Shown: positions 9,185 through 35,340 of the stretch, piece by piece
How positions within the stretch are numbered: position 1 is the first letter of the stretch
Layout of the letters: every line of letters begins with the position of its first letter
Origin: a virus
Reading direction: 5' to 3' (one strand)
IMG/VR virus record: IMGVR_UViG_3300045988_134806
Span: 535 to 64,534 of that record
DNA: 64,000 bases
The notes under the pieces: model-generated
Seen by the model: only the letters and a program-made list of their open reading frames with translations
Databases searched by the model: none
Told to the model about the DNA's origin: nothing
Made by a program: the position numbers and the translations under genes

Positions 9185-12100
9185 ATGCAGGACGACGATT
9201 GGAAAGTCATTGATAGGGACCCCGGAACTATCTCTTATAACTACGAACCGACAAAACAGCAAAACGCAGACGGTAGTTTGTTTTCCACGGACGCTTTCCG
9301 TGATACAGCAATCTCTTTGGGAAAAGGTCTTTCCTCGTTGGGTACGGGAGTTGTTGACGCCCTCGCCTTGGGGGCCTCTCAAGGATACAACGCACTGAAT
9401 GCAGAACTCTACGAAAAAGCTGGCCTGGAAGCTCCTAAAAAGTACAGCATGAATGCAGAGCTGAGAAAATCGGGAGTGATGAACCCAGAGGCGATCAATT
9501 CTTGGTGGAATGACAAATACTCTGAAGGCACAAAGCAAGCTCTTCAGAACGTAAGTGAAGCCGAAGGTTTCTGGGACACTCTTGTTGCGTATGCGCAGAA
9601 TCCCAGAGCCGTAATGGCGAGCATCGCAGAGAGTGCTCCTGCCATGCTGCCGGTTTTCGGCACCGCAGGCAAAGCTTACAAAGCTGCTGAAGCAGCCGGA
9701 CTTGCCAAGGGGCTGGCAGGCAAAGAGCTTGAAAACTACATCAAACGTCGAGTTATGGTCGCTTCAGGGGCTGCCGAAGGCGCAGTATCTTCTGCCGCGG
9801 CCTCTCAGGCAATCGGCCAAGATAACTTGGAGAACAGCAGAGACTATTCCGAAGGACAGGGTTGGGCACTTCCTATCGGTGTTACGACAGGTGTTGTCGG
9901 GCAGCTTAACCCGATGGAAGCCAATATTATGACTAAGGGCCTCGTTAAAGGGGTCTTGATGAAAGAGGCGATTAAGACAGGTCAGCCTGTCTCTATGCTT
10001 AAGAGCACAGGCGGAGCCCTTGGAAGAGCCGGAATGTCTGCGGTTAAAGAAGGCGGAGAAGAAGTCGCTCAGGGTGTCTTTGAAACAGGCTTTACCAATC
10101 TCGGACAGAAGAAAGAGTTTATGGATGACCAAGGCAAATCAGCGGCTGAAAACTTCGTTGTCGGCGGAGCTATGGGTGTCGGGATGCATCCGTTCACGAA
10201 CGGCGGCTTCCATAAAGGCAGCGCCGAGCAGGCGATTAACAACGGTTCCCCGACTCAGCAGGTTCAAGAGCAGTCTCAGCAAGCTATTCCGCTTCTTCCT
10301 TACGACAGACCTTTGGGTGCCGACGGCCGTGGCGGCGTGATGGTAGGACCGGGTTCTGACAGTCCGAGTCCGAGAATGAGGCTCAATCCTGAGGAACAGT
10401 CTCAAGTCACTCAGGCAACCACAGACGCTCAGAACCCTAACGCTCAAGTGCAGCAGCCCGTGGAAACTCAGCAGCCCACGATGTCTCCTGAAGAGGCTGA
10501 GCTCGCCCAGATGGAAGCCGAAGAATCAGCGAGACGCCAAGCTGTTATTGATAAGTATGGGCTGGAGTTTAACCGGGAGCACGGTACAGCGTTTGCCGAT
10601 GTAACTCGGAATATCACTGACGAAGCCGAAAAAGACTTCCACGCGAAAATCCTCCAAGCTGCCGGAATGATGGGTATCAAAAATCCGTTCAAAGAAAAAG
10701 AGGCTGCTGCGAATTTTGCTACTGAATACAGGACTTTCGGAGGGGATCTTGCCAAGCTTGCAGAGTTCTACAGAAACATCGGCATAAAAGCCGAAAACGA
10801 TGCCGGAAAGAAACAGGGTGCGCTTCGTCAAGCGGAGTTTTATCAGCAGTTAGCCGACCTCTTGGAAGGCGGAGAACTCTTGAACTTCGAGCAGCGTCGC
10901 GCTCGTAAAGAAGAGAAGAAAGCAGCTCAGGCAGCAGAGATACAGGCCGCACAAGTGCAGCAGACAGCAGAGCAGATGATGGCTCAGGAACCCGCCCCTG
11001 TGGAAGCTCAGCCCGAGGTGAAGACTCAGCCGAAACCGGAAGCTCCTAAGCTCTCCGGCGTCATTCCTTCCGAAGAAGAGATGTCAGACATGCAGTATGA
11101 CAAGACTCGCCAATACAGAGGTGAAGTCGCTGCGGTTATGTCCCGCTTGGAAAAAGAAGGGAAGATTACTCCAGAGCAGAAAGAAAAAGTTTTTGGTCTG
11201 TTTAACAGAAACCCTAAAAAATATAAGGTGCTCGATAATTACAAAGCTGCGATGCACGCGCTTAAAGACATCGAGAATCCTCAGCCTCCGAAGGAAGCTA
11301 AGTCCACAAGGAAGACTTTAACTAAAGAGGCGGAAGAAACTTGGCTGGCGCAAGGCAAGCTTACACCCGAAGCGCGCCAAATACTGGGTTATACCGACGC
11401 AGAGGCAGATCAGCTGGAAAGTATCAACAAACTTTTTACTACAAAAGAAGTACCGGCCCATGCCAAGCAGGTAAACAAGCTTAACAGCCTAATTATGCAT
11501 GGCGACTCTCGCGGAGCCAAGCAGCTTGCTGAACTGATGACAAAGCGGGCCGAAGCTTTACATGTCAAGGAGTACATCGAAAGCGAAGAGATGCAAGGGA
11601 GCGATGTTGATAAATTTAACTCTCTTGTTGCAGAAGAACGGTACCAAGAAGCCCTGACGATGGCTTACAAGCCTTTTAGCGAAGGCGGCTTGGAGCTGAG
11701 CCGTGAAGAAATAAATTCTATCGACCCTTCAAGACTGAAAAAAGAAGGGGAAGCGATCAATAAGGGTACAGAGGAAGAAGGGGAAGGACAGTCTGCTGGA
11801 GAAGACTTGGAAAAGTCTGAAGAAAATTCTAATGAGGGTTCAGTAGAAGATATCGGCAGAGTAGAAGCTGAACAGAACGGAGAAAGCGGCTCCGATACTA
11901 TCGGTGTTGCTGCAAGGGCGAAGGGCGGTACTGAGAAAGCAGGCCGTGCAATGGCTGCGAAGCATTCTAAGACTGTTGCCAAAAAAGAAGAGGATCGTTC
12001 CAAGGGCACAGTCAAAATAACTAAAGGTGAAGATGTAAAAGAAAAGCTTGAAGTTATCCCTCCGAAGGAGAAAGGAAAGGTTGATTTCTCCAAGAAGTTG

Positions 12101-15100
12101 GAGAATACGGACAAGTCTCGCACCGAGGAAACGAAGGCCGTAGAAGAAGCTGATAAAGCTGCTGCTAAAGCAGAAGCCAAAACGGAAGAACCGAAGAAAG
12201 CTAAATTCGGAGAAGCTCTGAAAAAGGCCTTTGACGAAGCGAAAGAGAAAGCTAAAACGGAAGGGGAAAGCAAACCCATAGAGCTTAAATCGGCCCCGAA
12301 ATCTCCCAAAGATCCGTTTAAAGGGACTGAGGAGAACAAGGCTACTGTCTCTGCCGTGGAAGGAAAAGAAAAAGATGCCAAGGCAGTTGCTAAGGCAGAG
12401 ATGAAGGTGCGCTCAATTCTTGAGAGCATGCAGGATTACTTAGACGGGAAGAGAAAGAAGAGACTCTCGGAAAACCAAGTAGACCTTGTCAATGAACTTA
12501 AAGACAAGGGCTTCCTGTTTGTAGACGACGAAAAGGTCCTTGACGACTATAAGAAGCGTATTGAAACCAAATTTGGAAAATCAACACGCCATGCCTCAAA
12601 GTCTGCAAAGACTGATCCTGAAACATCCCGAATTAGAGGGCTCCAAAGACTCCAAGAAGCCTTGGAAAATAGGACATCCGCACATCGGGCGATGTGGAGT
12701 AAACCGATCAGTATGTGGAGCCCGTCTTTGAACGGATGGGTTGATTTTGACTATGGGAGACTTGGAAGCATTATCGACGAAAACTTCACCACAAAAGGAG
12801 CTATGGGTGTTTCCCATATTGTCGATAAGAGAAGTTTAGCTCAAGGATTAAATCCTGCCGAAGTGGCCTTAGTCTTAAGAGAGATGGTTAACACTGTAGC
12901 TTATGGAGAACAGGTTAAGGCACATGAAAAAGCAGTACTCTTAAAGAGTGACAAGTTCAAGGTTGTTCTTTCGAAGAGCGGAGGAAACTCGTATGTAATT
13001 ACGGGTTTCGGTAAGATAAACAAAGGGGAAGCTGTGTCCTCCGGCACGTCAGACACAGTTTATTCCGCTCAAGCCAATTTGGACGCCCATGGCAAGAGCA
13101 TACCCCCGATCCTAGAGAGAGAAAAGAACCTTTCTAGGATCGTAAAAATTATCGCAGACCAAAAGCTTCTTTTCAAGGGTGACGAGCTCAAAGCACGCAA
13201 AGCTTCCAAGAGTTCTCTGACCGAAAAACAGAAGAAGCAGAACTACAACGATGTCCGAAACGGCCTGAATAAGTCGTGGGGCGTTTCAACGACTAAAGAG
13301 CTGCTGGACTCCGGAAAGGTGGTGATCTGTGATTCCAACGAAGGGTTCATTGACACTATCGTCAAAGATTACCTTGCCAAGGACCCGAACTTGTCAGAGG
13401 AAGAAGTCAGAAACACTCTCCACGAAGAAGGTCTTGACAAAGGAACGAACGCTATTTACGACGAGAACACAGGGAAGGTCTACATCAACGGCGAAAACGT
13501 TGATGAAAATGAGGCAGGCTCGGTACTTGCACATGAAATCGGTGTACACGCTGCTAAAGACTCTGAGTTCAAGGGGCTTGTCAAAGACATCGAAGACCGT
13601 GTCGCGACTTTGATGGCAGAAGGATTAAAGAGCAAGAACCCTGCGGTAAAGAAGTTTTGGGAAGATGTTAAACGCCGGATGGATGACGCCGATGTTTCTG
13701 ACAACGAAGAAAGACTTGCCTACTTCTTGGAAGTCTACGTTAAACGAAACGGCGTTATCCCTCAGTCCATCCAGTCTGAAATGTATCAGGCCATCGGCCA
13801 ACTTAAGGACTGGCTTCTTAAGTTCCTTGGTATTAAGAGCATCAATGAGCACAAGGCAGCCGAGCTTCTATGTGACGTAGTGAGAGCTTACGCCGATCAG
13901 AGCGCTATGGAGAAGGGCGGCGGTCGTCATGCTTCCAAGAAAGGTAAAAACGATAAAAGCGACAAACCCAAGAAACCCCGCAAGCAGCTCACACCCGAAG
14001 AAAAGGAAAAGAAAGAGAAGGAAAAGCTTGCCAAGATGACACCGTCGCAGAGGGCAAGTTATGAGCGGCGAAAAAAGATCGCCGATCTTAAGAAGGAAGT
14101 ACAGAAGCAGAAAGACTTTAGAGAAGGCGAAGCCTACAGAGATCAAAAAGCTCAAGAGGAGGACATGAAGGACTTCAATGACCTCCAAGGTGGGAAGCCT
14201 ATTGTTGAGGTTGTCAAAAGCCGAAGTGAAAGAGCTTCCGGCATGGAAAAGCAGGCGTATGCAATCGGCGAAAAAGTTCTCGCTTATCTTAAACGGGCGG
14301 CTACATACTTAAACTTTAGATTCCTTAAGTTCACCAATGAGCTCGTAAACGATATCGGTGAAAGATGCCCCGCTGCCAAGGTCTGGTATAACGAACTGTT
14401 GGAATGGGGCAAGGACCGTCAGAAGTACAGAGCAGAAGCTCAAGAGATTTTCTCTCGTTTTGACAAGTTCCCTAAGAACGTAAAAGACGAAGTTGAAAGC
14501 CTTCTCTTTGACAGCACCACGTCAGGGCAGTGGGCCTTCGATATTTCTGACTGGAAAGATGCTAAGGGCAATAACCTCACAGCAGAAAAATATTCCATCA
14601 ATCCAGAACTTGAGGCTCGCTTCGATGAGCTGGCTAAAAATAATCCGCAGGCAGCGATGGTTGTCTATGACACACTGAAACACGGCTACGATCGTTTCAT
14701 CCAAATCAAGACCAAGATCGACACTGTCGGCAAAGCTGTCTTCGGAGATAAGTATCGTTCGCTGATTAAGATGCCAAAGAGCGTCATGCCCTACGTACCC
14801 TTGGTTCGTACAGGTCAATACAATGTTGTGTGGCGGAGCCATCAGCTCAAGGCCGAGTACTTGATGCTGGATAAGCTCAAAGCAGAACGTGATGCATACG
14901 AAGAAAAGAAACAGGATATACCTAGCGCGCTAACCAATGCGATTAAGAACACTGAAAGCAAGATTGATGCAATGGAACGCAACGAGAACCATTATGTCGT
15001 GTCTCGTTTCGACAGCCTCGCCAAGGCGATTGACTTCCAGTCGGAACTTAACGGCCGACAGCGTGACAACCAAGCCACGCTGACAGATGTCGGCGATCAA

Positions 15101-17143
15101 CAGAAGAAGTCTCTGACCGGTCAGGCCAACATCGACCGCATGCTCTCTGACTTTGAAGAGAAGTTCGAAGAGCACTATGGCAAAGGCATGGGGGTCGCCA
15201 TGCGTCAGACTGTCCAAGAAATGCTCTTGGAAAGCGCGCAAAAGACCCTGCACTCTGCCACCAAGCAGAGAAGAAACATTGCCGGTGCCAACCCGCACGT
15301 CATGGAAACATTCATGCACCACGCCAATACGGATGCTTGGATGCTCTCCAACCTTGACCATGGCAAGAAAATATCCAATGCCTTCACAACCCTTTATAAA
15401 GAAGTAGAAGCGTTCCGCAACAGTCCGAAAACTGAGGACCAAAAGGAAGCAACGGAGCTAAGTGACATCTATAACGAACTTGCTCGTCGTTACAACTTCA
15501 TTACCAAACGAGAAGATCACGGTCTGACAGATGACGTAGTCGAAGGGGTTCGGGCATTTAACACGTTCAGTATGCTGTCCCTGAAACCTGCATACTATAT
15601 TCAGAACGCTCTCCAGCCGACCATGATGACAATGCCTTATCTATCGGGCGAGTTCGGTGTCGGCCAAACCATGGCTCAGATGAAGCACTCTTACGGAGAA
15701 TGGCTGGGCTTTGTGAAAAAGACTTGGGGCACAGCAGAAACCAAAAGAGAAAAATACCACGCCATCAGCAACATTATGGATGCCATTCAGGGTTCCAAGC
15801 TTCCTGAAGACATAAAGGAAATGCTTCTTGATATGGAGCGCCTGAATCTTCTTGACTTAGGTGCTCAGGCCGACTTTGGAAGCTTCCGTGGAAACAACGC
15901 GCTTCTAAAAATGGCGAACAAAGGCATGACCGAACTCGGGTACCTAGCCCGAAGCGTAGAACTTGCCAACCGTTATGTGACTGCCACAGCGGCTTACCGC
16001 ATGATGAAGACCAAGCTGTTAAGCCAAAAGGCAACAAAAGAAGAAGCGGAAGCCGGTGCCAAAGAATATGCTGCCAAGGTTTTAAGTAAAACTCAAGGCG
16101 ACTACTCAGGAATCAATGCACCAAGTGCTTTCAACACGAAGTGGGGCAAGGTTGCGTTGCAGTTTAGAAAGTTCCAAGCCATCCAACTTAATTACTTCCT
16201 CGATATGGCCAAAGGAAGTTTTAAGGGTATGACCAAAGACGAAAGAGGCGTGTACCAAAAACAGCTCACCGTTGCTATCGCAACTCACTTGGTTATGGCA
16301 GGTATGAATGGGGCTCCGGCTATGGCGATCGGCTACATGCTTGCAGGAGCGTTATTCGGAGATGACGGAGAAGATGGGGAAGATACCGTTCGCAGACTCT
16401 TAAGTGAAGCAGGTTGGAGCGGTGACATGATTGACATTGCAATGGAAGGGCCGTTAAGCGCCATCGGTATCAACCTCTCCAACTCGGTCGGAGCAGGCCA
16501 GATGTTCTCTCCGGTTCCTTACACCCGCAAGGGCCTTACGGAAGAAGGTGGAATGATGGAGTTCCTGACATCCGCATTCGGGGGTGCTACGGCAAGCCGA
16601 CTGATAAGACTTCACACAGGCGCAGTCCAAAGCAAAGAAAGCAACAACTGGGGAAGACCCTTCTGGGAGGCTGCTCTTCCGGCAGGAATCCCTCAAATGC
16701 TCAAAGCCGCCCACATCATAGATCCCACAGTGGACAAGAGGACTGGTGCCAAGATGCTTAAGGACGAAGACTTCACAGTTTGGCATAGCTTTGTACAGGC
16801 CCTTGGCTTTACACCGAGCCCCGTGGAAAGAATGTATCAGATGAGAAACGTCGCTTATAAGACTCAGAAGGCAATCAAGGAAGAAAAGGGCGATCTAACG
16901 CGCCGTTGGATTGACGCCATGAAGAACCGAGATTACAAGGCGCAGTCGGAAATCCGAAAAGAGCTGCCTGAGCTTAATCGAAAGAGAAGAGCCAAGGGGT
17001 TCAAGCCTGTGACCATGAACGACCTGATGACTGCTTGGAAGACGCGCCAGAAGGAAGAAAAACTCATGCAGAAGAATCATGGGCTCAAACTTCCGAACAG
17101 CCAGCAGGGGTTTGCCAAGCAGCTCAACAAAATTTACAATTAG
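9185..17143 (+). CDS. giant 2652-aa virion-associated (ejected?) multidomain protein with zincin HExxH motif
   Basis: Single uninterrupted 7959-nt ORF. SVLAHEIGVHAAKD (HEIGVH at 13532-13549). E/K/A low-complexity tract at about 11.7-12.4 kb. Gly/Ala/Met-rich hydrophobic segments at about 16.27-16.36 kb. Strong terminator downstream. Confidence 0.9.
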   Translation: MQDDDWKVIDRDPGTISYNYEPTKQQNADGSLFSTDAFRDTAISLGKGLSSLGTGVVDALALGASQGYNALNAELYEKAGLEAPKKYSMNAELRKSGVMNPEAINSWWNDKYSEGTKQALQNVSEAEGFWDTLVAYAQNPRAVMASIAESAPAMLPVFGTAGKAYKAAEAAGLAKGLAGKELENYIKRRVMVASGAAEGAVSSAAASQAIGQDNLENSRDYSEGQGWALPIGVTTGVVGQLNPMEANIMTKGLVKGVLMKEAIKTGQPVSMLKSTGGALGRAGMSAVKEGGEEVAQGVFETGFTNLGQKKEFMDDQGKSAAENFVVGGAMGVGMHPFTNGGFHKGSAEQAINNGSPTQQVQEQSQQAIPLLPYDRPLGADGRGGVMVGPGSDSPSPRMRLNPEEQSQVTQATTDAQNPNAQVQQPVETQQPTMSPEEAELAQMEAEESARRQAVIDKYGLEFNREHGTAFADVTRNITDEAEKDFHAKILQAAGMMGIKNPFKEKEAAANFATEYRTFGGDLAKLAEFYRNIGIKAENDAGKKQGALRQAEFYQQLADLLEGGELLNFEQRRARKEEKKAAQAAEIQAAQVQQTAEQMMAQEPAPVEAQPEVKTQPKPEAPKLSGVIPSEEEMSDMQYDKTRQYRGEVAAVMSRLEKEGKITPEQKEKVFGLFNRNPKKYKVLDNYKAAMHALKDIENPQPPKEAKSTRKTLTKEAEETWLAQGKLTPEARQILGYTDAEADQLESINKLFTTKEVPAHAKQVNKLNSLIMHGDSRGAKQLAELMTKRAEALHVKEYIESEEMQGSDVDKFNSLVAEERYQEALTMAYKPFSEGGLELSREEINSIDPSRLKKEGEAINKGTEEEGEGQSAGEDLEKSEENSNEGSVEDIGRVEAEQNGESGSDTIGVAARAKGGTEKAGRAMAAKHSKTVAKKEEDRSKGTVKITKGEDVKEKLEVIPPKEKGKVDFSKKLENTDKSRTEETKAVEEADKAAAKAEAKTEEPKKAKFGEALKKAFDEAKEKAKTEGESKPIELKSAPKSPKDPFKGTEENKATVSAVEGKEKDAKAVAKAEMKVRSILESMQDYLDGKRKKRLSENQVDLVNELKDKGFLFVDDEKVLDDYKKRIETKFGKSTRHASKSAKTDPETSRIRGLQRLQEALENRTSAHRAMWSKPISMWSPSLNGWVDFDYGRLGSIIDENFTTKGAMGVSHIVDKRSLAQGLNPAEVALVLREMVNTVAYGEQVKAHEKAVLLKSDKFKVVLSKSGGNSYVITGFGKINKGEAVSSGTSDTVYSAQANLDAHGKSIPPILEREKNLSRIVKIIADQKLLFKGDELKARKASKSSLTEKQKKQNYNDVRNGLNKSWGVSTTKELLDSGKVVICDSNEGFIDTIVKDYLAKDPNLSEEEVRNTLHEEGLDKGTNAIYDENTGKVYINGENVDENEAGSVLAHEIGVHAAKDSEFKGLVKDIEDRVATLMAEGLKSKNPAVKKFWEDVKRRMDDADVSDNEERLAYFLEVYVKRNGVIPQSIQSEMYQAIGQLKDWLLKFLGIKSINEHKAAELLCDVVRAYADQSAMEKGGGRHASKKGKNDKSDKPKKPRKQLTPEEKEKKEKEKLAKMTPSQRASYERRKKIADLKKEVQKQKDFREGEAYRDQKAQEEDMKDFNDLQGGKPIVEVVKSRSERASGMEKQAYAIGEKVLAYLKRAATYLNFRFLKFTNELVNDIGERCPAAKVWYNELLEWGKDRQKYRAEAQEIFSRFDKFPKNVKDEVESLLFDSTTSGQWAFDISDWKDAKGNNLTAEKYSINPELEARFDELAKNNPQAAMVVYDTLKHGYDRFIQIKTKIDTVGKAVFGDKYRSLIKMPKSVMPYVPLVRTGQYNVVWRSHQLKAEYLMLDKLKAERDAYEEKKQDIPSALTNAIKNTESKIDAMERNENHYVVSRFDSLAKAIDFQSELNGRQRDNQATLTDVGDQQKKSLTGQANIDRMLSDFEEKFEEHYGKGMGVAMRQTVQEMLLESAQKTLHSATKQRRNIAGANPHVMETFMHHANTDAWMLSNLDHGKKISNAFTTLYKEVEAFRNSPKTEDQKEATELSDIYNELARRYNFITKREDHGLTDDVVEGVRAFNTFSMLSLKPAYYIQNALQPTMMTMPYLSGEFGVGQTMAQMKHSYGEWLGFVKKTWGTAETKREKYHAISNIMDAIQGSKLPEDIKEMLLDMERLNLLDLGAQADFGSFRGNNALLKMANKGMTELGYLARSVELANRYVTATAAYRMMKTKLLSQKATKEEAEAGAKEYAAKVLSKTQGDYSGINAPSAFNTKWGKVALQFRKFQAIQLNYFLDMAKGSFKGMTKDERGVYQKQLTVAIATHLVMAGMNGAPAMAIGYMLAGALFGDDGEDGEDTVRRLLSEAGWSGDMIDIAMEGPLSAIGINLSNSVGAGQMFSPVPYTRKGLTEEGGMMEFLTSAFGGATASRLIRLHTGAVQSKESNNWGRPFWEAALPAGIPQMLKAAHIIDPTVDKRTGAKMLKDEDFTVWHSFVQALGFTPSPVERMYQMRNVAYKTQKAIKEEKGDLTRRWIDAMKNRDYKAQSEIRKELPELNRKRRAKGFKPVTMNDLMTAWKTRQKEEKLMQKNHGLKLPNSQQGFAKQLNKIYN

Positions 17144-27598: not shown

Positions 27599-29170
27599 TT
27601 AATTGCAAGATTGAGTACTTTCCCGCATGAGGTCTAGTAAAGTTCCTTGCAAGCTTTGGCGGTTCTTCAATCGTTCATAAACAACTTCTTCATACTTCGT
27701 GGAAACAATGTGAACGATAACCGTCGTGTGCTTCTGGCCGGGGCGTCTGACGCGGGCGCAAGCCTGCTGATATGTCTCGTTGGAATAAACCGGCCCAAAC
27801 CAAATAATGGTTGTAGCTGCTGTCAGTGTTAGACCGTGGGACATCGCTGTCGGGTTTGCCACGAGCACTTTCGGATCATCGGTGCGCTGGAAAAGAGCAA
27901 ATATTCTGTCTCGATCTTCCTTTGAAGTAGAGCCGTCAATCACTTCGTTGGTCACTCCAGTATCTGTTAGATATTTGGAAACTCTTTGTAAAGCGGCTGT
28001 GAACGGGATGAACACGATGCACTTGCCCTCAGAGGCCTCAATCGTCTCCATGAGCACTTCCAAGCGCTTCAAGATGGGATACTCGACCACAGTATCGTTA
28101 TCGCCGTAGAGCGAGCCCAAGGCGATCTGCATGAGCTTGGAAGCCTTGATGGCTTCGTTGCTTGCCGTTATGTCTCCTTCTTCGAATTGCACCTGAAGCG
28201 AAGAGAGCATCGCCTTATATGCCAGCTCTTGAGGCGCAGACATCTCTGCTTTCTTGGTGAGGAACACCTGCGGGGGCAGGTCCAAGCACTCGTCGATACT
28301 GAAACGCACGGCGGGCTGCATGACACGATGAACATAAGCAGCAGAATCAGGCTTAGGCAACCATTTGAACTGGTTGACTTGCGTCATTACCTGATTGCGG
28401 AAGCTGTTGTAATAGAGCGGGCAGTCCTTATTATTCGGCGTTACCAACCGGATCTGAGCGTAAGCATCAGCAGGGGAGTTCGGGATCGGAGAACCTGTCA
28501 GCCCCCAGACACGGCGCGGTGTCTGCTTGTTGCAGATGGTGTTGAGTGCCTTCCAGCGGTCGGTCGTTTTCGTGCGCATAAGCGCCAGCTCGTCGATCAC
28601 GATGAGATCAATGTCTCTTCGGGCAGCCAGCTCATCGACGATGATCTTGGCACCGTCGGTGTTAATGAGATAAATGTCCGCCGGATCTTTGAGAAGCTTC
28701 AGGCGTTTATCTTTCGTGCCGTAGAGCACATTAACCTTGTACTGCGGGAAGCTGAAAAACGCTTCGTCAGCCCATGTTCTTTCCAAGGTGGAAAGAGGAC
28801 AGACAACGAGCATGGAACGAACCTGACCGCACTTTTTCAAGTAGTCGTAGGCCCACAGCGTTGTGATTGTTTTGCCAAGGCCCATGCTGTTAAGGATGAA
28901 GCAGCGGTCGTTCATCGTGGCGAACTCCGCCGAGATCCTCTGAGCTTCAAAGGGTTTGAACTTCGCAGGGAAGTCGTAGTACATCTGCATGGGAGAGGGC
29001 ACATCGTAGCCCAAAGAACGAAGCACCCTCGTTTCGTCGGGCCGGTGCGGCACGGCTACCATCGGCCCCTTGGCGGTTTTAACAACTTTGGCCGCCGGGA
29101 TGACGGTTGTAATCTGTGCGGGATTCTGCGGCTGAAGCAGAACCGCTTGTTTGTCTTTGAGAATAATCAT
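27599..29170 (-). CDS. SNF2-family DNA helicase/translocase
   Basis: NSMGLGKTITTLW (motif I), LIVIDELALMR (DExx, motif II), GLTGSPIPN, and C-terminal HGLTLTAATTIIWFGPVYSNETYQQACARVRRPGQ (motifs V-VI). Confidence 0.9.
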   Translation of the reverse strand: MIILKDKQAVLLQPQNPAQITTVIPAAKVVKTAKGPMVAVPHRPDETRVLRSLGYDVPSPMQMYYDFPAKFKPFEAQRISAEFATMNDRCFILNSMGLGKTITTLWAYDYLKKCGQVRSMLVVCPLSTLERTWADEAFFSFPQYKVNVLYGTKDKRLKLLKDPADIYLINTDGAKIIVDELAARRDIDLIVIDELALMRTKTTDRWKALNTICNKQTPRRVWGLTGSPIPNSPADAYAQIRLVTPNNKDCPLYYNSFRNQVMTQVNQFKWLPKPDSAAYVHRVMQPAVRFSIDECLDLPPQVFLTKKAEMSAPQELAYKAMLSSLQVQFEEGDITASNEAIKASKLMQIALGSLYGDNDTVVEYPILKRLEVLMETIEASEGKCIVFIPFTAALQRVSKYLTDTGVTNEVIDGSTSKEDRDRIFALFQRTDDPKVLVANPTAMSHGLTLTAATTIIWFGPVYSNETYQQACARVRRPGQKHTTVIVHIVSTKYEEVVYERLKNRQSLQGTLLDLMRESTQSCN

Positions 29171-29678: not shown

Positions 29679-30038
29679 TTATGGGACATACTTGGTTGTT
29701 TCTGCTTCTTTTTTTAATAAATCAATACACTCCTTGGCAAATGATGCTGTCTCAGTGACAATAGCCATCCCGCCTGCGGCGTATATTTCATTTAGGGCCT
29801 TCTTTTGATTTGGAGTCGTATTCTTCAGCTTGCCCTTTGCTTTTGCTTCTATGCCTCCGAACACTCCCAAGGTCTTGCCAACCATATCCTGTGTGATAGT
29901 CACCGGGATACAGCAAATAAAATCTGGAACTCCGACAGAGCTAAAACCACATGGCACTACCATGTAGAAGTAGCAATTCTCGTTTTTGAGAAGAATTTTA
30001 ATCTCTTTCTTAACCTTCCCCTCTGGTGTTGTTGCCAT
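29679..30038 (-). CDS. VRR-NUC domain nuclease
   Basis: GKVKKEIKILL...GVPDFICCIP...GGIEAKAKGKLKNTTPNQKKALNEIYAAGGMA matches the VRR-NUC D...E-x-K...Q core. Start taken at the ATG at 30038. Confidence 0.8.
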   Translation of the reverse strand: MATTPEGKVKKEIKILLKNENCYFYMVVPCGFSSVGVPDFICCIPVTITQDMVGKTLGVFGGIEAKAKGKLKNTTPNQKKALNEIYAAGGMAIVTETASFAKECIDLLKKEAETTKYVP

Positions 30039-30735
30039 TTCTTCTCCCTCTATAAACCAGCGGATCAAATAAGTGCTCTTCGCTCCAACCTCTTTTTATT
30101 CTGTGCATTACAGTATCTAAACTAATTCCTGTTTGCTTGCAGCGTTCTTCATAGAACTTTGTTATATCGCCCTTAGTTATCGGCCGTCTGAGCCTCTCGC
30201 CGCGGTCACCGTCAGAATACCGCGACACCAAAGTGACGTACGAGATACCCGTTTCTTGACTTATTTCCTTTAACGTTTGCCCGTTATCTTTTATTGTCAG
30301 TCTCTTGTTGTAAGCCTGTTCCTCAGTAGTTGCCCACCGACAATTTTCTTTGCAATAGCCTTTGTTAGGGTCAATCCTATCAATAGATTTATCCTCAGAA
30401 TAGCCAGACTTCATGTCCTTCCAAAAACCGTTAAAAGTCTCCCAATCATCAGAAACTTTAATTCCTCTGGCTCCGTAGTTCTTAAAGTCTTTGTTCTTCG
30501 GATTGTTGCAACGGTTTTTCATACCTACCCAAATCCGATAAGGTCGTGATCTACGCCCATGCTTTTGAATCTCTCCGTGTGTAGGGTCCCCTCTGCAACC
30601 ACAAGAAGGCTTTGCTCCTTGCTTAACGTGAGAGCGGAGAGAAGCAAGTCTCTTTACAACAACTGTTCCACAAACGCACTGACACTCAACCATAGTAGTC
30701 CATCTTTGCCCCTGTGCTTCTCTAAGAACGGTCAA
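30010..30735 (-). CDS. free-standing homing-endonuclease-like protein (paralogue of the intein-nested ORF)
   Basis: 241 aa. Cys cluster CQCVCG...CGC, then YRIWVGMKNRCNNPKNKDFKNYGARGIKVSDDW...SIDRIDPNKGYCKENCRWATTEEQAYNK, then a C-terminal HTH-like region. Clear homology to ORF 32877-33587. Confidence 0.7.
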   Translation of the reverse strand: MTVLREAQGQRWTTMVECQCVCGTVVVKRLASLRSHVKQGAKPSCGCRGDPTHGEIQKHGRRSRPYRIWVGMKNRCNNPKNKDFKNYGARGIKVSDDWETFNGFWKDMKSGYSEDKSIDRIDPNKGYCKENCRWATTEEQAYNKRLTIKDNGQTLKEISQETGISYVTLVSRYSDGDRGERLRRPITKGDITKFYEERCKQTGISLDTVMHRIKRGWSEEHLFDPLVYRGRRNGNNTRGEG

Positions 30736-30769
30736 AAATCCGAACTTCTCTCCGACAGGGATGGGGAGT

Positions 30770-32586: not shown

Positions 32587-35340
32587 CTATTTTGCTTCTC
32601 CGTATGACTTTCCGATACCACCTTCACAATCCACTGGGAGATCAGGCGCCCAAGCGGGACGAACTCTCATCATCTCTTCCATCATTGCCTTGGTTTCCTC
32701 AGCTTCTTCTTCAGGTACGACTACTACGACTTCGTCGTGTACGGTAAGTACAACTTGTCGGATCTTGCCATTGGAGTTTCCTCCTTTCTCCTTGAGCTTC
32801 TGGGCTATCCGGCCCATCTGCCAAAAGACCACTTCTCTCGCTAATGCTTGGATGATGTTCTCGCAGTTATGGACGATTAACGGCTTCCCGTCTGATCCTT
32901 GGACGACGTACCTGTGTCGGCGTCCGCAGTTTGTAATGTCGAAAACCTCCGACTCAAATCCGGTGGGTCTGCCAAGTGCTCTAAGGGCACTCCGTTCTTG
33001 ATCCTGTAGTGAACTGTTGTTACTCCCAAGCCATGCTTTCTGGCAAACTCCGCTATTGTCAGGTCGCCGATCCTTACATTGTTGCGTTTGTTGTTTGCCT
33101 GTTTCCGCATCGTAATCCAACGACAATTCGATGGCTCGTAGTTCCCATTCACGTCTATACGGTCCAGCGAAAGCCCAGCCTTGTAAGTCGGACCCATATC
33201 CGCATAGAAGTTCTCGAACTTTTCCAGCCACCTTTCGCAGACCTTGATCCCACGTCCTCCGTAGTTTTTCCAAGCCTGAGCATTGGGGTCCGTACATCTT
33301 TGCTTCATTGAGTGCCAGACATTCCATATTGGCGTTGCTGCCATGCCATGCCTTGTTAAGGCCTTGGAAAAATGCTCTCTGTGTTTGCATCCACAGCTTG
33401 GAAGGTAGCCGGCTCTTACTTGACTCTTTAGCTCGTGTGAATCCCTTAATACCTCTTTCCCACATTCGCATCTGTATTTCCAGTAGCTGTGATGCTTTCT
33501 GATGTGAGAGAAGCTCAAAGCCGTTAGGTAACCGAACTTCTGCCCGGTCAAATCTTTCCGCGGTTTCCCCGGTGCGCCAGCCGTCATTTGTTAGCACCTT
33601 ATGATCCTTTGTCATTGAAACTCCGAATACTTCAATGACTTGTTTTTTTCCGTTAAAAGCAACTCCGGTGTGCTTAACCCATTCAACACCGTCCCATACC
33701 TTGTCAGTGAGTTCAACATCCTGAATAGGAATCCATCCTCTGGAAGTTAGGACGGGTGTGTCCTTTGCTATGCAAAGCTTTCCGCCGTAGATCTTTGTCC
33801 TAAAGTTCTTCCTCCTATAAGAGTAGCCTTTCTCTTCTTTGTCGTTAGCTTCTGCGCGGTAGCGAAGCTCAGGGTAGAGCAGATAAGTACCGTTAGGAAG
33901 CCAAATCTTTCCGGGCTCGTACTTGAGCTTGACGCCTTCTCCAAACTCGCCGCTGTAGCCTGCAACCATATTGGAAAGAACGTCACTACATGTCTGCCAC
34001 ATGGACTTAATGGCATAATTTGAGCTCCTATAGATGTCAACAATTCGTTGGCATTCTGCATCACTCATTATAACGTTTCCGTTCTTCAATGCAGATTGAA
34101 GTTTTCTCCAACCCACCTGATAACCTAATCCAAGCGTAGCGGTTTTTCCGACGAATCTTTCAAGCTTATCAGCCTTCGTAATTTTCCGTCCGTAGATCTT
34201 AGAAGCCAGTTCGCAATACACATCGTTCCCTTCGGCAAAATGCTTAACTAGGTCTAATTGACCGCTAAACCAAGCATTAACCCTCCCTTCAATGTTGCTC
34301 GAGTCGCAGGCGCAGATCATGTGCTTAGGCGGAGCAATCAGCGACTTCCTTATTTCTCCTCCGCGGGGGAGATTTTGAAGATTTAATTTGTCACCCCCTG
34401 AAGCTCTTCCTGTTGACCCTCCCCAATAATTAAGTAGTATAGGTAAGGGTCCCCGATTAGCCACCCCTATGAGACTTTCCGTTCTTGTCTCTTCAATCGT
34501 GCTCTTAGTCCCGAGGCGTGCTGCTGCCACGGCCTGCACACGTTCGTCCGGGTGCTCCAAGAGTTCCTTAAAGCCGTCGTCCGTCTTAGCAAACGCAAAC
34601 GTTTCCTTACCAGTAGTAGGGCTCACCTTCATGGGAGGCGTAACTCCAAGGCTTTTCAGAACCTCAGCGAAGAGGTTGTTGCTCATCAGCTGATCCTTCG
34701 TGAAAGGGATTCGGGAGAGAAGCTCTTGTTTCTTCGCTCTTACGTCAGCTAGGTGGGCTTCGAGCCTCGGCTTGTCCAAGACGATCTTTGGCTCCGTGAA
34801 CATCCGCAGCATCATGTCGATGATGACAAGCTCGCCTTTGGTCGTGTATGGGAGCAGTTTCTTAAAGAGGTGGTACGTAAGGTTCACGTCCTGCCTGCAA
34901 TAAACACCGAAGGCATCGAGCTCCGACCTCGTGAAGTCTTTCTTGCGTTTGCCCAGCGTGTTGTAGATCTCCGTGCCTTTCTCGCCCAAGCCGAACAGCT
35001 TGGAAAGCGCTCGCAACGAACTTCCCACTGTAAGCCCAGTGAGAGGGCGGGCCATGCTCAATGTGTCGAGCAGAAACTTCGGATGGATGTCGTAGATCCA
35101 CGAAAGAATCGCGCCATCAAATGCAGTGTTGTGGCAGAGGACTTGGTGATCCTCCAAGTGAAGAGCCTTAAGCTCTTCGCCTATGTTCTCCGTGATCCAT
35201 CTGATGCCTCCTGAATCAATCTTCACCGAGACACCGATTACCTCAAATCTGGGATCTCTTATGTAGGATTCTGTGGTCATCTTTGAAAGACTAAAGTCTT
35301 TGCTATAGAAAGTCTCAAAGTCCAAAACGACTAGCGACAT
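32587..35340 (-). CDS. family A DNA polymerase with 3'-5' exonuclease domain, interrupted by an intein
   Basis: Exo motifs VLDFETF, HNTAFDGAIL, YCRQDV. Pol motif A ICACDSSNIEGRV, motif B RFVGKTATLGLGYQVG, motif C VLTVHDEVVV. A 303-aa Hint-type insertion sits between YGGKL and CENIIQALARE. Confidence 0.92.
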   Translation of the reverse strand: MSLVVLDFETFYSKDFSLSKMTTESYIRDPRFEVIGVSVKIDSGGIRWITENIGEELKALHLEDHQVLCHNTAFDGAILSWIYDIHPKFLLDTLSMARPLTGLTVGSSLRALSKLFGLGEKGTEIYNTLGKRKKDFTRSELDAFGVYCRQDVNLTYHLFKKLLPYTTKGELVIIDMMLRMFTEPKIVLDKPRLEAHLADVRAKKQELLSRIPFTKDQLMSNNLFAEVLKSLGVTPPMKVSPTTGKETFAFAKTDDGFKELLEHPDERVQAVAAARLGTKSTIEETRTESLIGVANRGPLPILLNYWGGSTGRASGGDKLNLQNLPRGGEIRKSLIAPPKHMICACDSSNIEGRVNAWFSGQLDLVKHFAEGNDVYCELASKIYGRKITKADKLERFVGKTATLGLGYQVGWRKLQSALKNGNVIMSDAECQRIVDIYRSSNYAIKSMWQTCSDVLSNMVAGYSGEFGEGVKLKYEPGKIWLPNGTYLLYPELRYRAEANDKEEKGYSYRRKNFRTKIYGGKLCIAKDTPVLTSRGWIPIQDVELTDKVWDGVEWVKHTGVAFNGKKQVIEVFGVSMTKDHKVLTNDGWRTGETAERFDRAEVRLPNGFELLSHQKASQLLEIQMRMWERGIKGFTRAKESSKSRLPSKLWMQTQRAFFQGLNKAWHGSNANMECLALNEAKMYGPQCSGLEKLRRTWDQGLRKVAGKVRELLCGYGSDLQGWAFAGPYRREWELRAIELSLDYDAETGKQQTQQCKDRRPDNSGVCQKAWLGSNNSSLQDQERSALRALGRPTGFESEVFDITNCGRRHRYVVQGSDGKPLIVHNCENIIQALAREVVFWQMGRIAQKLKEKGGNSNGKIRQVVLTVHDEVVVVVPEEEAEETKAMMEEMMRVRPAWAPDLPVDCEGGIGKSYGEAK
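32866..33774 (-). mobile_element. intein in the DNA polymerase (residues C523-N825)
   Basis: Block A CIAKDTPVLTSRGWIPIQDV, block B MTKDHKVLTNDGW, blocks F/G EVFDITNCGRRHRYVVQG...PLIVHN followed by a +1 Cys. The central ~190 aa in this frame have no endonuclease motifs. Confidence 0.85.
32877..33587 (-). CDS. homing-endonuclease-like protein encoded out of frame inside the polymerase intein
   Basis: 236-aa ORF on the same strand, shifted one frame relative to the polymerase. AAGGTG lies 7 nt before its ATG. IWNVWHSMKQRCTDPNAQAWKNYGGRGIKVCERW...SLDRIDVNGNYEPSNCRWITMRKQANNK is homologous to ORF 30010-30735. Confidence 0.75.
   Translation of the reverse strand: MTAGAPGKPRKDLTGQKFGYLTALSFSHIRKHHSYWKYRCECGKEVLRDSHELKSQVRAGYLPSCGCKHREHFSKALTRHGMAATPIWNVWHSMKQRCTDPNAQAWKNYGGRGIKVCERWLEKFENFYADMGPTYKAGLSLDRIDVNGNYEPSNCRWITMRKQANNKRNNVRIGDLTIAEFARKHGLGVTTVHYRIKNGVPLEHLADPPDLSRRFSTLQTADADTGTSSKDQTGSR

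Follow-up and report, generated by a model that had tools for sequence, protein, structure and literature searches.

How can a stretch of viral DNA stay open in two reading frames of the same strand, when one of these frames has to be read through to produce a DNA polymerase? This question is raised by a family A DNA polymerase gene in the IMG/VR record IMGVR_UViG_3300045988_134806, of which positions 535 to 64,534 (64,000 nt, hereafter the window) have been analyzed. In textbook inteins, the homing endonuclease is an in-frame domain. Here, with a probability that can be put at about 80%, the sequence points to a mobile class-1 intein located at a conserved polymerase motif (YGGKL↓xENxxQAxAR, the arrow marking the insertion point), whose slot between splicing blocks B and F would be filled by a separate homing endonuclease of 236 aa encoded in the +1 frame. 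The polymerase gene and the parts of its intein are arranged as follows.

32587..35340, minus strand: family A DNA polymerase gene, a continuous precursor open reading frame (ORF) of 917 codons plus stop (ORF list)
33775..35340, minus strand: N-extein, residues 1-522, ending in ...KIYGGKL (alignment with intein-less homologues)
32866..33774, minus strand: class-1 intein of 303 codons, residues 523-825, from Cys1 to His-Asn and then Cys+1 (exact insertion; model of the Hint ends)
33577..33774, minus strand: Hint N-terminal splicing region, with block A (CIAKDTPVLTSRGW) and block B (MTKDHKVLT, T-x-x-H motif); invariant residues, pLDDT (score of the local distance difference test, as predicted) 95-98
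32950..33576, minus strand: polymerase-frame read-through of the endonuclease gene, intein residues about 67-275, a non-conserved, stop-free, low-confidence linker
32866..32949, minus strand: Hint C-terminal splicing region, with block F (EVFDITNCGRRHRYVV) and block G (PLIVHN); pLDDT 93-96
32587..32865, minus strand: C-extein, from Cys+1-ENIIQALARE through motif C (VHDE) to the stop (same alignment)

A first-pass annotation of this DNA had described a continuous polymerase of 917 aa carrying a 303-aa intein at 32866-33774, and had suggested examining it by alignment with intein-less homologues, by profile and structure prediction of both frames and by the distribution of substitutions over codon positions. 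Every element of this description proved correct, and these checks all turned out in its favor. The ORF list contains the continuous frame, in which Pfam identifies polymerase and 3'-5' exonuclease domains (PF00476, E=1e-31, and PF01612). As megablast of the polymerase against phage records gave no match, protein-level searches were needed. When aligned with two polymerases lacking the intein, those of Rhizobium phage RHph_TM3_14A and Pseudomonas phage KPP25, the protein contains an exact insertion of 303 residues between IYGGKL and [C/L/T]ENI[IV]QALAR, which starts with CIAKDTPV, ends with PLIVHN and is followed by a Cys residue.

All residues expected of a splicing domain (C1, T55, D57, H58, D279 in block F, H302-N303 and Cys+1) are present and are invariant across four lineages. 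In the AlphaFold model of the intein, both Hint parts are predicted with a pLDDT of 93-98, and the Foldseek matches of this model are all splicing domains of mini-inteins (Ssp DnaB, Npu DnaE, gp41-1 and Mtu RecA; probability 1.0, best E=2.9e-4). The center of the intein in the polymerase frame (~180 residues) has a pLDDT of 29-63, and this translation contains no endonuclease domain in Pfam, PHROGs or NCBIfam, in agreement with the first-pass annotation. A group I intron carrying an endonuclease gene was considered and rejected, the Rfam search giving no intron match at E<=1 and the insertion being in frame with Hint blocks. Profile searches are less telling for the splicing domain, as Pfam does not detect Hint in the intein and TIGR01445 (NCBIfam) gives a weak match below cut-off (E=0.031). 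This would suit an insertion that does not splice, the polymerase being then a pseudogene or tolerating the 303 residues as a surface loop, as proposed for the ShiLan insertion of phage methylases. Such an explanation is very unlikely, given the complete and invariant set of splicing residues, the Hint fold of the model, the strong purifying selection acting on both exteins and the interruption by the insertion of a nearly invariant polymerase motif. From the conserved splicing residues and the selection on the exteins, it can be inferred that the polymerase precursor splices.

Inside this intein lies the second gene, with its own start signals.

32877..33587, minus strand: nested gene coding for a putative homing endonuclease of 236 aa and offset by +1 from the polymerase frame (ATG ORF; phrog_374; AlphaFold; selection)
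33594..33599, minus strand: Shine-Dalgarno-like AAGGTG, formed by the block B Lys-Val codons and followed after 7 nt by the ATG of the endonuclease (AAGGTG-N7-ATG at 33599..33585)

The first-pass annotation had noticed this ORF and its AAGGTG-N7-ATG in another frame than that of the polymerase, a frame which proves to be +1. The +1 ORF is a real gene: it matches phrog_374, gives a confident AlphaFold model and begins with an ATG at Shine-Dalgarno spacing. Among PHROG families annotated as HNH endonuclease, phrog_374 is the best match (E=7e-68), and the mean pLDDT of the model is 89.7; in score as in fold, the +1 frame thus behaves as a member of a family whose annotation is homing endonuclease. 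Three parts can be distinguished in the protein, namely a Cys-rich module on the N-terminal side (CxC...CGC), a core of HNH-like (I-HmuI-like) type and, on the C-terminal side, a helix-turn-helix-like region, followed by a tail which overlaps Hint blocks F/G, is modeled with low confidence and is absent in relatives. At least 7875 homologues are found in databases, most of the best matches being devoid of any Pfam domain. In BFVD, 136 phage proteins match the model, many of them uncharacterized, while the named ones include HNH and homing endonucleases.

The start signals of the nested gene are written in the codons of block B (DH-K/E-V-L-T-N/D-D), which supply both the Shine-Dalgarno-like motif and the ATG (..AAGGTGCTAACAAATGAC..). 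In 20 of 21 distinct relatives, the conserved DLTG motif is preceded by a Shine-Dalgarno-like sequence and a start codon; in some of them the start is located elsewhere (intein residue 68 or 74) with both signals retained. Just upstream of the nested start, no sigma-70-like promoter is found, nor is there significant RNA structure around it. This lack of a promoter-like site, together with the overlap of two frames on one strand with a +1 offset, is what would be expected if the endonuclease were produced as a fusion with the polymerase and Hint N-terminal frame by programmed +1 ribosomal frameshifting. However, in the window and in many relatives, a TAA codon stands in the endonuclease frame two codons before the ATG (CTAACAAATG). 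The shift would therefore be confined to 6 nt, which argues against a frameshift fusion, as does the retention of a Shine-Dalgarno-like motif and start codon in the relatives, including those with alternative starts. This second explanation is accordingly given little credence.

The frame under selection within the overlap can be read from the positions of substitutions. Two close relatives were used, L076 (a Logan contig whose endonuclease is 89% identical) and L077 (an ENA contig syntenic with the window), both frames being open in both; an apparent break in the L077 polymerase was traced to a scaffold gap of Ns and is no real interruption. In the overlap, polymerase codon position 1 corresponds to endonuclease position 3. 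Between the window and L077, substitutions at polymerase positions 1/2/3 number 20/10/132 in the N-extein, 59/10/9 in the overlap and 5/2/40 in the last 11 nt of the intein and the C-extein; over Hint blocks F/G, they shift back to polymerase position 3. The same switch of frame is seen in all 14 independent locus pairs, with 885 of 1318 and 607 of 938 substitutions in the exteins at polymerase position 3, and 985 of 1654 in the overlap at position 1. When distant lineages are compared, identity over the overlap amounts to 44-47% in the endonuclease frame vs 21-30% in the polymerase frame. As substitutions inside the overlap fall at endonuclease position 3, selection acts there on the endonuclease protein: this is where purifying selection is exerted, the polymerase frame being merely kept open.

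How it is kept open follows a simple pattern. A stop in the polymerase frame requires a T at the third position of an endonuclease codon followed by a codon starting with AA, AG or GA. In the window gene, none of the 71 contexts at risk carries this T, vs 42 of 165 (25%) elsewhere; 18 stops would be expected, and the probability of finding none is 9e-10. In the free-standing paralogue of the nested gene described below, 24 of 83 such contexts have the T, corresponding to 24 stops in the equivalent frame. Reciprocally, the +1 frame is free of stops for 714 nt (polymerase nt 1747-2461), while it contains 39 of them over the rest of the polymerase gene (~1/52 nt). The first-pass annotation was thus right in holding that a stop-free dual frame is unlikely by chance. 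A chance open frame is ruled out by this P of about 1e-9 and by the same +1 offset recurring in independent isolates and metagenomes; for the same reasons, an assembly or frameshift artefact affecting an ordinary in-frame intein endonuclease is exceedingly improbable. All that speaks for these two possibilities is how seldom such arrangements are annotated. In the standard code, each NNT codon has a synonymous NNC. Since this is always so, keeping the host frame open costs the endonuclease no amino acid change. A +2 offset would, from the genetic code, forbid Met before a codon starting with A. Avoidance of stops by synonymous changes only may explain why the +1 offset predominates, as may shared ancestry.

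Homologous elements are found well beyond the window. With the nested protein, the best tblastn matches lie inside annotated polymerase genes of Caulobacter phages GB2A, RW, RLK and KcrB, Shewanella phage SFCi1 and Hamiltonella APSE phages. All three loci examined among these (GB2A, SFCi1 and APSE-1) have an unbroken polymerase ORF and, in +1, a homologue of the endonuclease with 660-678 nt open; their Hint N-terminal regions are 50-65% identical to that of the window, and the GB2A and SFCi1 records annotate the polymerase only. Protein searches retrieved 3 proteins with the intein alone and 33 with an alignment. Scanning IMG/VR with the intein alignment yielded 72 loci (designated, like the other relatives, L followed by a number), many of which are related, their counts thus not representing independent events. 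A homologue of the endonuclease is present in +1 in 65 of them, the host frame reading through in 63, and in +2 in 3 others. Two (L039 and L061) are mini-inteins of 128-133 aa without endonuclease, and the last 2 are longer inteins with no detectable endonuclease homologue. Among the 63 read-through loci, a few have a decayed or short endonuclease frame; within the +1 set, it is decayed in L022 and L033. Disruption of the alternative ORF in relatives retaining the intein had been named in the first-pass annotation as an observation that would speak against a dual-coding element; it is instead intact in L076, L077 and three cultured phage lineages, as it is, apart from the few just mentioned, in the +1 read-through loci of IMG/VR.

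In two loci, L055 (1060-4226) and L073 (1843-4532), the family A polymerase gene is fractured: the part ending in Hint-N, the endonuclease gene, which belongs to the same family as that of the window, and the part starting with Hint-C are found in three different frames. Both loci have the appearance of a split-intein form of the window element, each being represented by one metagenome contig in which sequencing frameshifts are possible. Insertion sites are also diverse: in polymerases, at least three registers of the YGGK..EN..Q motif and the region of motif B are occupied, and in SNF2/DEAD helicases several sites. Within the 8-residue polymerase motif, the registers are YGGK↓CVEN, YGGKL↓CEN and YGG..EN↓C.Q (SFCi1 (L003), L004, L018, L021, L026 and others compared with the window), which suggests either a moving point of insertion inside a single recognition region or the repeated invasion of neighboring sites. 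The polymerases of L004, L005, L009, L017, L020 and L022 contain a second, upstream intein (about 1190-2210 or 1624-2420 in locus coordinates), whose endonuclease-like stretch is offset from its own Hint N block by +1 in the first four and by +2 in L020 and L022. SNF2/DEAD-type helicase genes of L007, L014, L038 and L066 are interrupted by related inteins, again with an endonuclease gene nested in +1. The SNF2-like gene of the window (27599..29170) contains no intein.

The distribution at the polymerase site bears the signature of a mobile element. The YGGK[VL][VI]EN..Q motif is uninterrupted in 77 of the 80 polymerases from IMG/VR that are most closely related to that of the window. In L080, the motif is not contiguous and an intein with a +1 endonuclease gene is present, which fits an insertion at or near the window site, while in L091 and L118 the motif is not contiguous, yet there is no Hint or endonuclease match; L124 carries an intein at another site. 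The Hint N region (window 33541-33810) is 96-98% identical to that of L077, compared with about 80% for the adjacent N-extein and 71-81% for the N-terminal third of the endonuclease, and the mosaic boundaries between both genomes roughly match the start of the intein. This peak of identity could reflect a recent transfer of the intein or a recombination inside the element.

The window also contains a free-standing copy of the nested gene.

30010..30735, minus strand: free-standing paralogue of the nested gene (35% identity over 188 aa, E=6e-37)

The homology claimed between both genes in the first-pass annotation is therefore well founded. The paralogue is absent from the otherwise syntenic L077, which represents a presence/absence polymorphism. 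Its homology (GEKFGFLTVL motif) runs upstream of the first ATG/GTG/TTG at 30735, the region covering 30010-30756 (minus strand), and its frame is open back into the stop of an upstream 73-aa gene, with no obvious full-length start; a non-canonical start, translational coupling or decay may account for this. It overlaps a VRR-NUC-like ORF (29679..30068) by 59 nt. The sporadic presence of this family at conserved sites of essential genes, in free-standing and embedded copies, is as expected of homing endonuclease genes as a functional class. Elsewhere in the window, a very long ORF of 2652 aa occupies positions 9185-17143 (plus strand).

The biochemical nature of the nested protein is less straightforward, and several points weigh against assigning it to a homing endonuclease in a mobile intein. 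Foldseek of its model against the PDB gives nothing below E=0.35. Among solved structures, the family profile matches I-HmuI alone, an HNH nicking homing endonuclease, and does so weakly (E=0.0034). In the alignment, D142-R143 of the profile face D74-H75 of I-HmuI, the Arg being invariant in all 58 aligned members, and the beta-beta-alpha metal motif with a general-base His, characteristic of HNH enzymes, is not found in the nested protein. In I-HmuI, His75 of this Asp-His pair is the general base. The genomic arguments also have their limits: the figure of 0/3398 across relatives was counted on loci preselected for an open host frame, the independent support for stop avoidance is the number of loci, many of which share ancestry, and the identity peak over the Hint N region could stem from general genome mosaicism and not from recent homing.

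The features of the protein would suit a nested ORF which is expressed and conserved, but whose product never was a nuclease or has ceased to be one and might bind DNA sequence-specifically, as a regulator or as a helper recruiting another nuclease, the intein being kept mainly by vertical descent or by recombination due to other enzymes. The invariant Arg and the lack of a PDB match agree with this possibility, as do weak helix-turn-helix matches in the protein (Sigma70_r4 in Pfam and Ner in a profile search) and the fact that some of its BFVD neighbors are named AP2/ERF or DNA-binding proteins. Pfam-A shows no significant match for the protein, including HNH, and NCBIfam no useful one. This alternative nevertheless appears improbable, though less so than the others considered here. 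Indeed, the family behaves as a mobile one, being found at many different conserved sites of polymerases and helicases; its distribution is sporadic, with a presence/absence polymorphism of the free-standing copy; split-gene versions occur, as with known homing endonuclease genes; and the Asp residue aligned with I-HmuI Asp74 is conserved together with Asn positions. Because Arg replaces His75 in all 58 aligned members, canonical HNH chemistry is not supported. A nuclease activity of the nested protein is thus likely on genomic grounds, with a chemistry that would not be that of canonical HNH enzymes. In the 58-member alignment, His80 and Cys98 are invariant and Cys117 and Cys155 nearly so; these four residues could form a zinc site, while Cys40, Cys42, Cys65 and Cys67, on the N-terminal side, resemble a zinc ribbon.

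I-HmuI (PDB 1U3E) shares with the window family the LDRID..G.Y..NCRW.T..Q..N motif, a modular build and a C-terminal DNA-binding region. It differs, besides the weakness of the match, by the His after Asp74 in place of the invariant Arg and by the lack of the extra N-terminal Cys-rich module. The closest known system is the P45 intein of APSE-1, a Hamiltonella phage, with the nested P46: a homologous element located at the same polymerase site (YGGKS↓CENICQAAARD), whose Hint blocks are 55-63% identical to those of the window and whose endonuclease is 44% identical and in the same +1 frame, both frames being open. In contrast, APSE-1 belongs to another phage lineage, and the polymerases are only ~26% identical (partial BLASTP match). 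In RefSeq (NC_000935), P46 is annotated as an "HNH endonuclease" inside P45, from an internal Met and covering part of the open frame only; it likely starts at a GTG which aligns with the GB2A ATG. The intein is reported to have been lost in some APSE polymerases (PMC7313666). The inteins of phage phiCbK were also considered as possible relatives and rejected, being unrelated and located in terminase and ribonucleotide reductase.

Other systems combine splicing elements and endonuclease genes in different ways. [quoted passage not shown] As in the window, the endonuclease lies between the splicing blocks, on the same strand and in another frame, and the in-frame translation has no recognizable structure. 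The enzymes differ, since the actinophage one is VII-like with a catalytic core at residues 1-67, whereas that of the window has an I-HmuI-like core at about 132-170 and an N-terminal Cys-rich module; the offset is also different ("frame 3" vs +1). A cyanobacterial dnaX intein contains an out-of-frame LAGLIDADG endonuclease in +2 (Phillips, DeSimone and Gogarten, bioRxiv 10.64898/2026.09.14.751524). It resembles the window element by its overlapping frames, disordered in-frame center, constrained endonuclease frame with a relaxed extein frame, and sporadic distribution. Nevertheless, it involves a LAGLIDADG enzyme, a +2 ORF and a cellular gene, while the window family is HNH-like, in +1 and hosted by phage polymerases and helicases.

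In fractured genes, split inteins are separated by a free-standing endonuclease gene of the GIY-YIG or Vsr-like families (Dassa et al. 2009, PMC2677866). Here also, a free-standing-type endonuclease gene occupies the intein slot and overlaps the neighboring coding regions, and L055 and L073 match this split arrangement with the Hint and endonuclease families of the window. By contrast, the polymerase of the window is not split between two ORFs on either side of the endonuclease gene: it is encoded by one continuous ORF, the intein being contiguous and splicing predicted to occur in cis. Finally, the ShiLan insertion in mycobacteriophage methylases is an out-of-frame HNH gene without intein, for which leaderless initiation has been proposed (PMC11855218). 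Unlike it, the window element has complete Hint blocks flanking the endonuclease gene and a Shine-Dalgarno-like site.

The first-pass annotation had supposed the arrangement to be undescribed, a view overturned by both bioRxiv reports (10.1101/2025.01.02.630785 and 10.64898/2026.09.14.751524), where out-of-frame cases are termed rare, and by the RefSeq entry for P46. Out-of-frame intein endonucleases are thus already known; what is distinct here is the endonuclease family, the +1 offset, the start signals in block B, the occurrence in phages of Proteobacteria (for known hosts) and the breadth of mini, nested, decayed and split states. The suggestion, in the first-pass annotation, of a mini-intein invaded by a free-standing homing endonuclease gene has fared better, as it fits the mini-inteins L039 and L061, the free-standing paralogues and the split loci L055 and L073. 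To call the result an "intermediate" is doubtful, because the nested state is conserved in very diverged phages.

A mechanism consistent with these data can be proposed for the nested homing endonuclease and its intein. Ribosomes translating the polymerase mRNA would read through the overlap, producing an unstructured linker of ~200 aa which would leave with the Hint domain upon splicing (through Cys1, the block B Thr/His, His-Asn and Cys+1). The endonuclease would be produced by internal initiation at the Shine-Dalgarno motif and ATG written in the block B codons (DH-KV-LT-ND). During co-infection, it would cut or nick intein-less polymerase alleles, and repair would copy the intein together with the endonuclease gene into the cut alleles.

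A broader proposal, somewhat less probable than not and therefore put forward tentatively, is that the window element belongs to a large and largely unrecognized clade of phage inteins, inserted at several family A polymerase and SNF2/DEAD helicase sites. In this clade, a separately translated +1 endonuclease, with its ribosome-binding site and start in block B, would be the stable and normal state and not a transient one; the +1 offset would be favored as the only one kept stop-free by synonymous choices, and the Arg-for-His family would have a non-canonical active site.

The present data suggest that the nested arrangement is common in phage replication genes and that it escapes annotation, since a gene caller retains a single ORF at each locus. 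As mini, nested +1, decayed and split states coexist in one homologous set, the scenario in which the splicing domain came first and was later invaded by an endonuclease gene becomes testable by phylogeny and experiment. The overlap further illustrates a simple codon-level rule, by which a host frame stays open at no cost to the gene overlapping it. It also brings to light an abundant and uncharacterized endonuclease-like family, of at least 7875 members and without Pfam model, whose targets can be read from its insertion sites.

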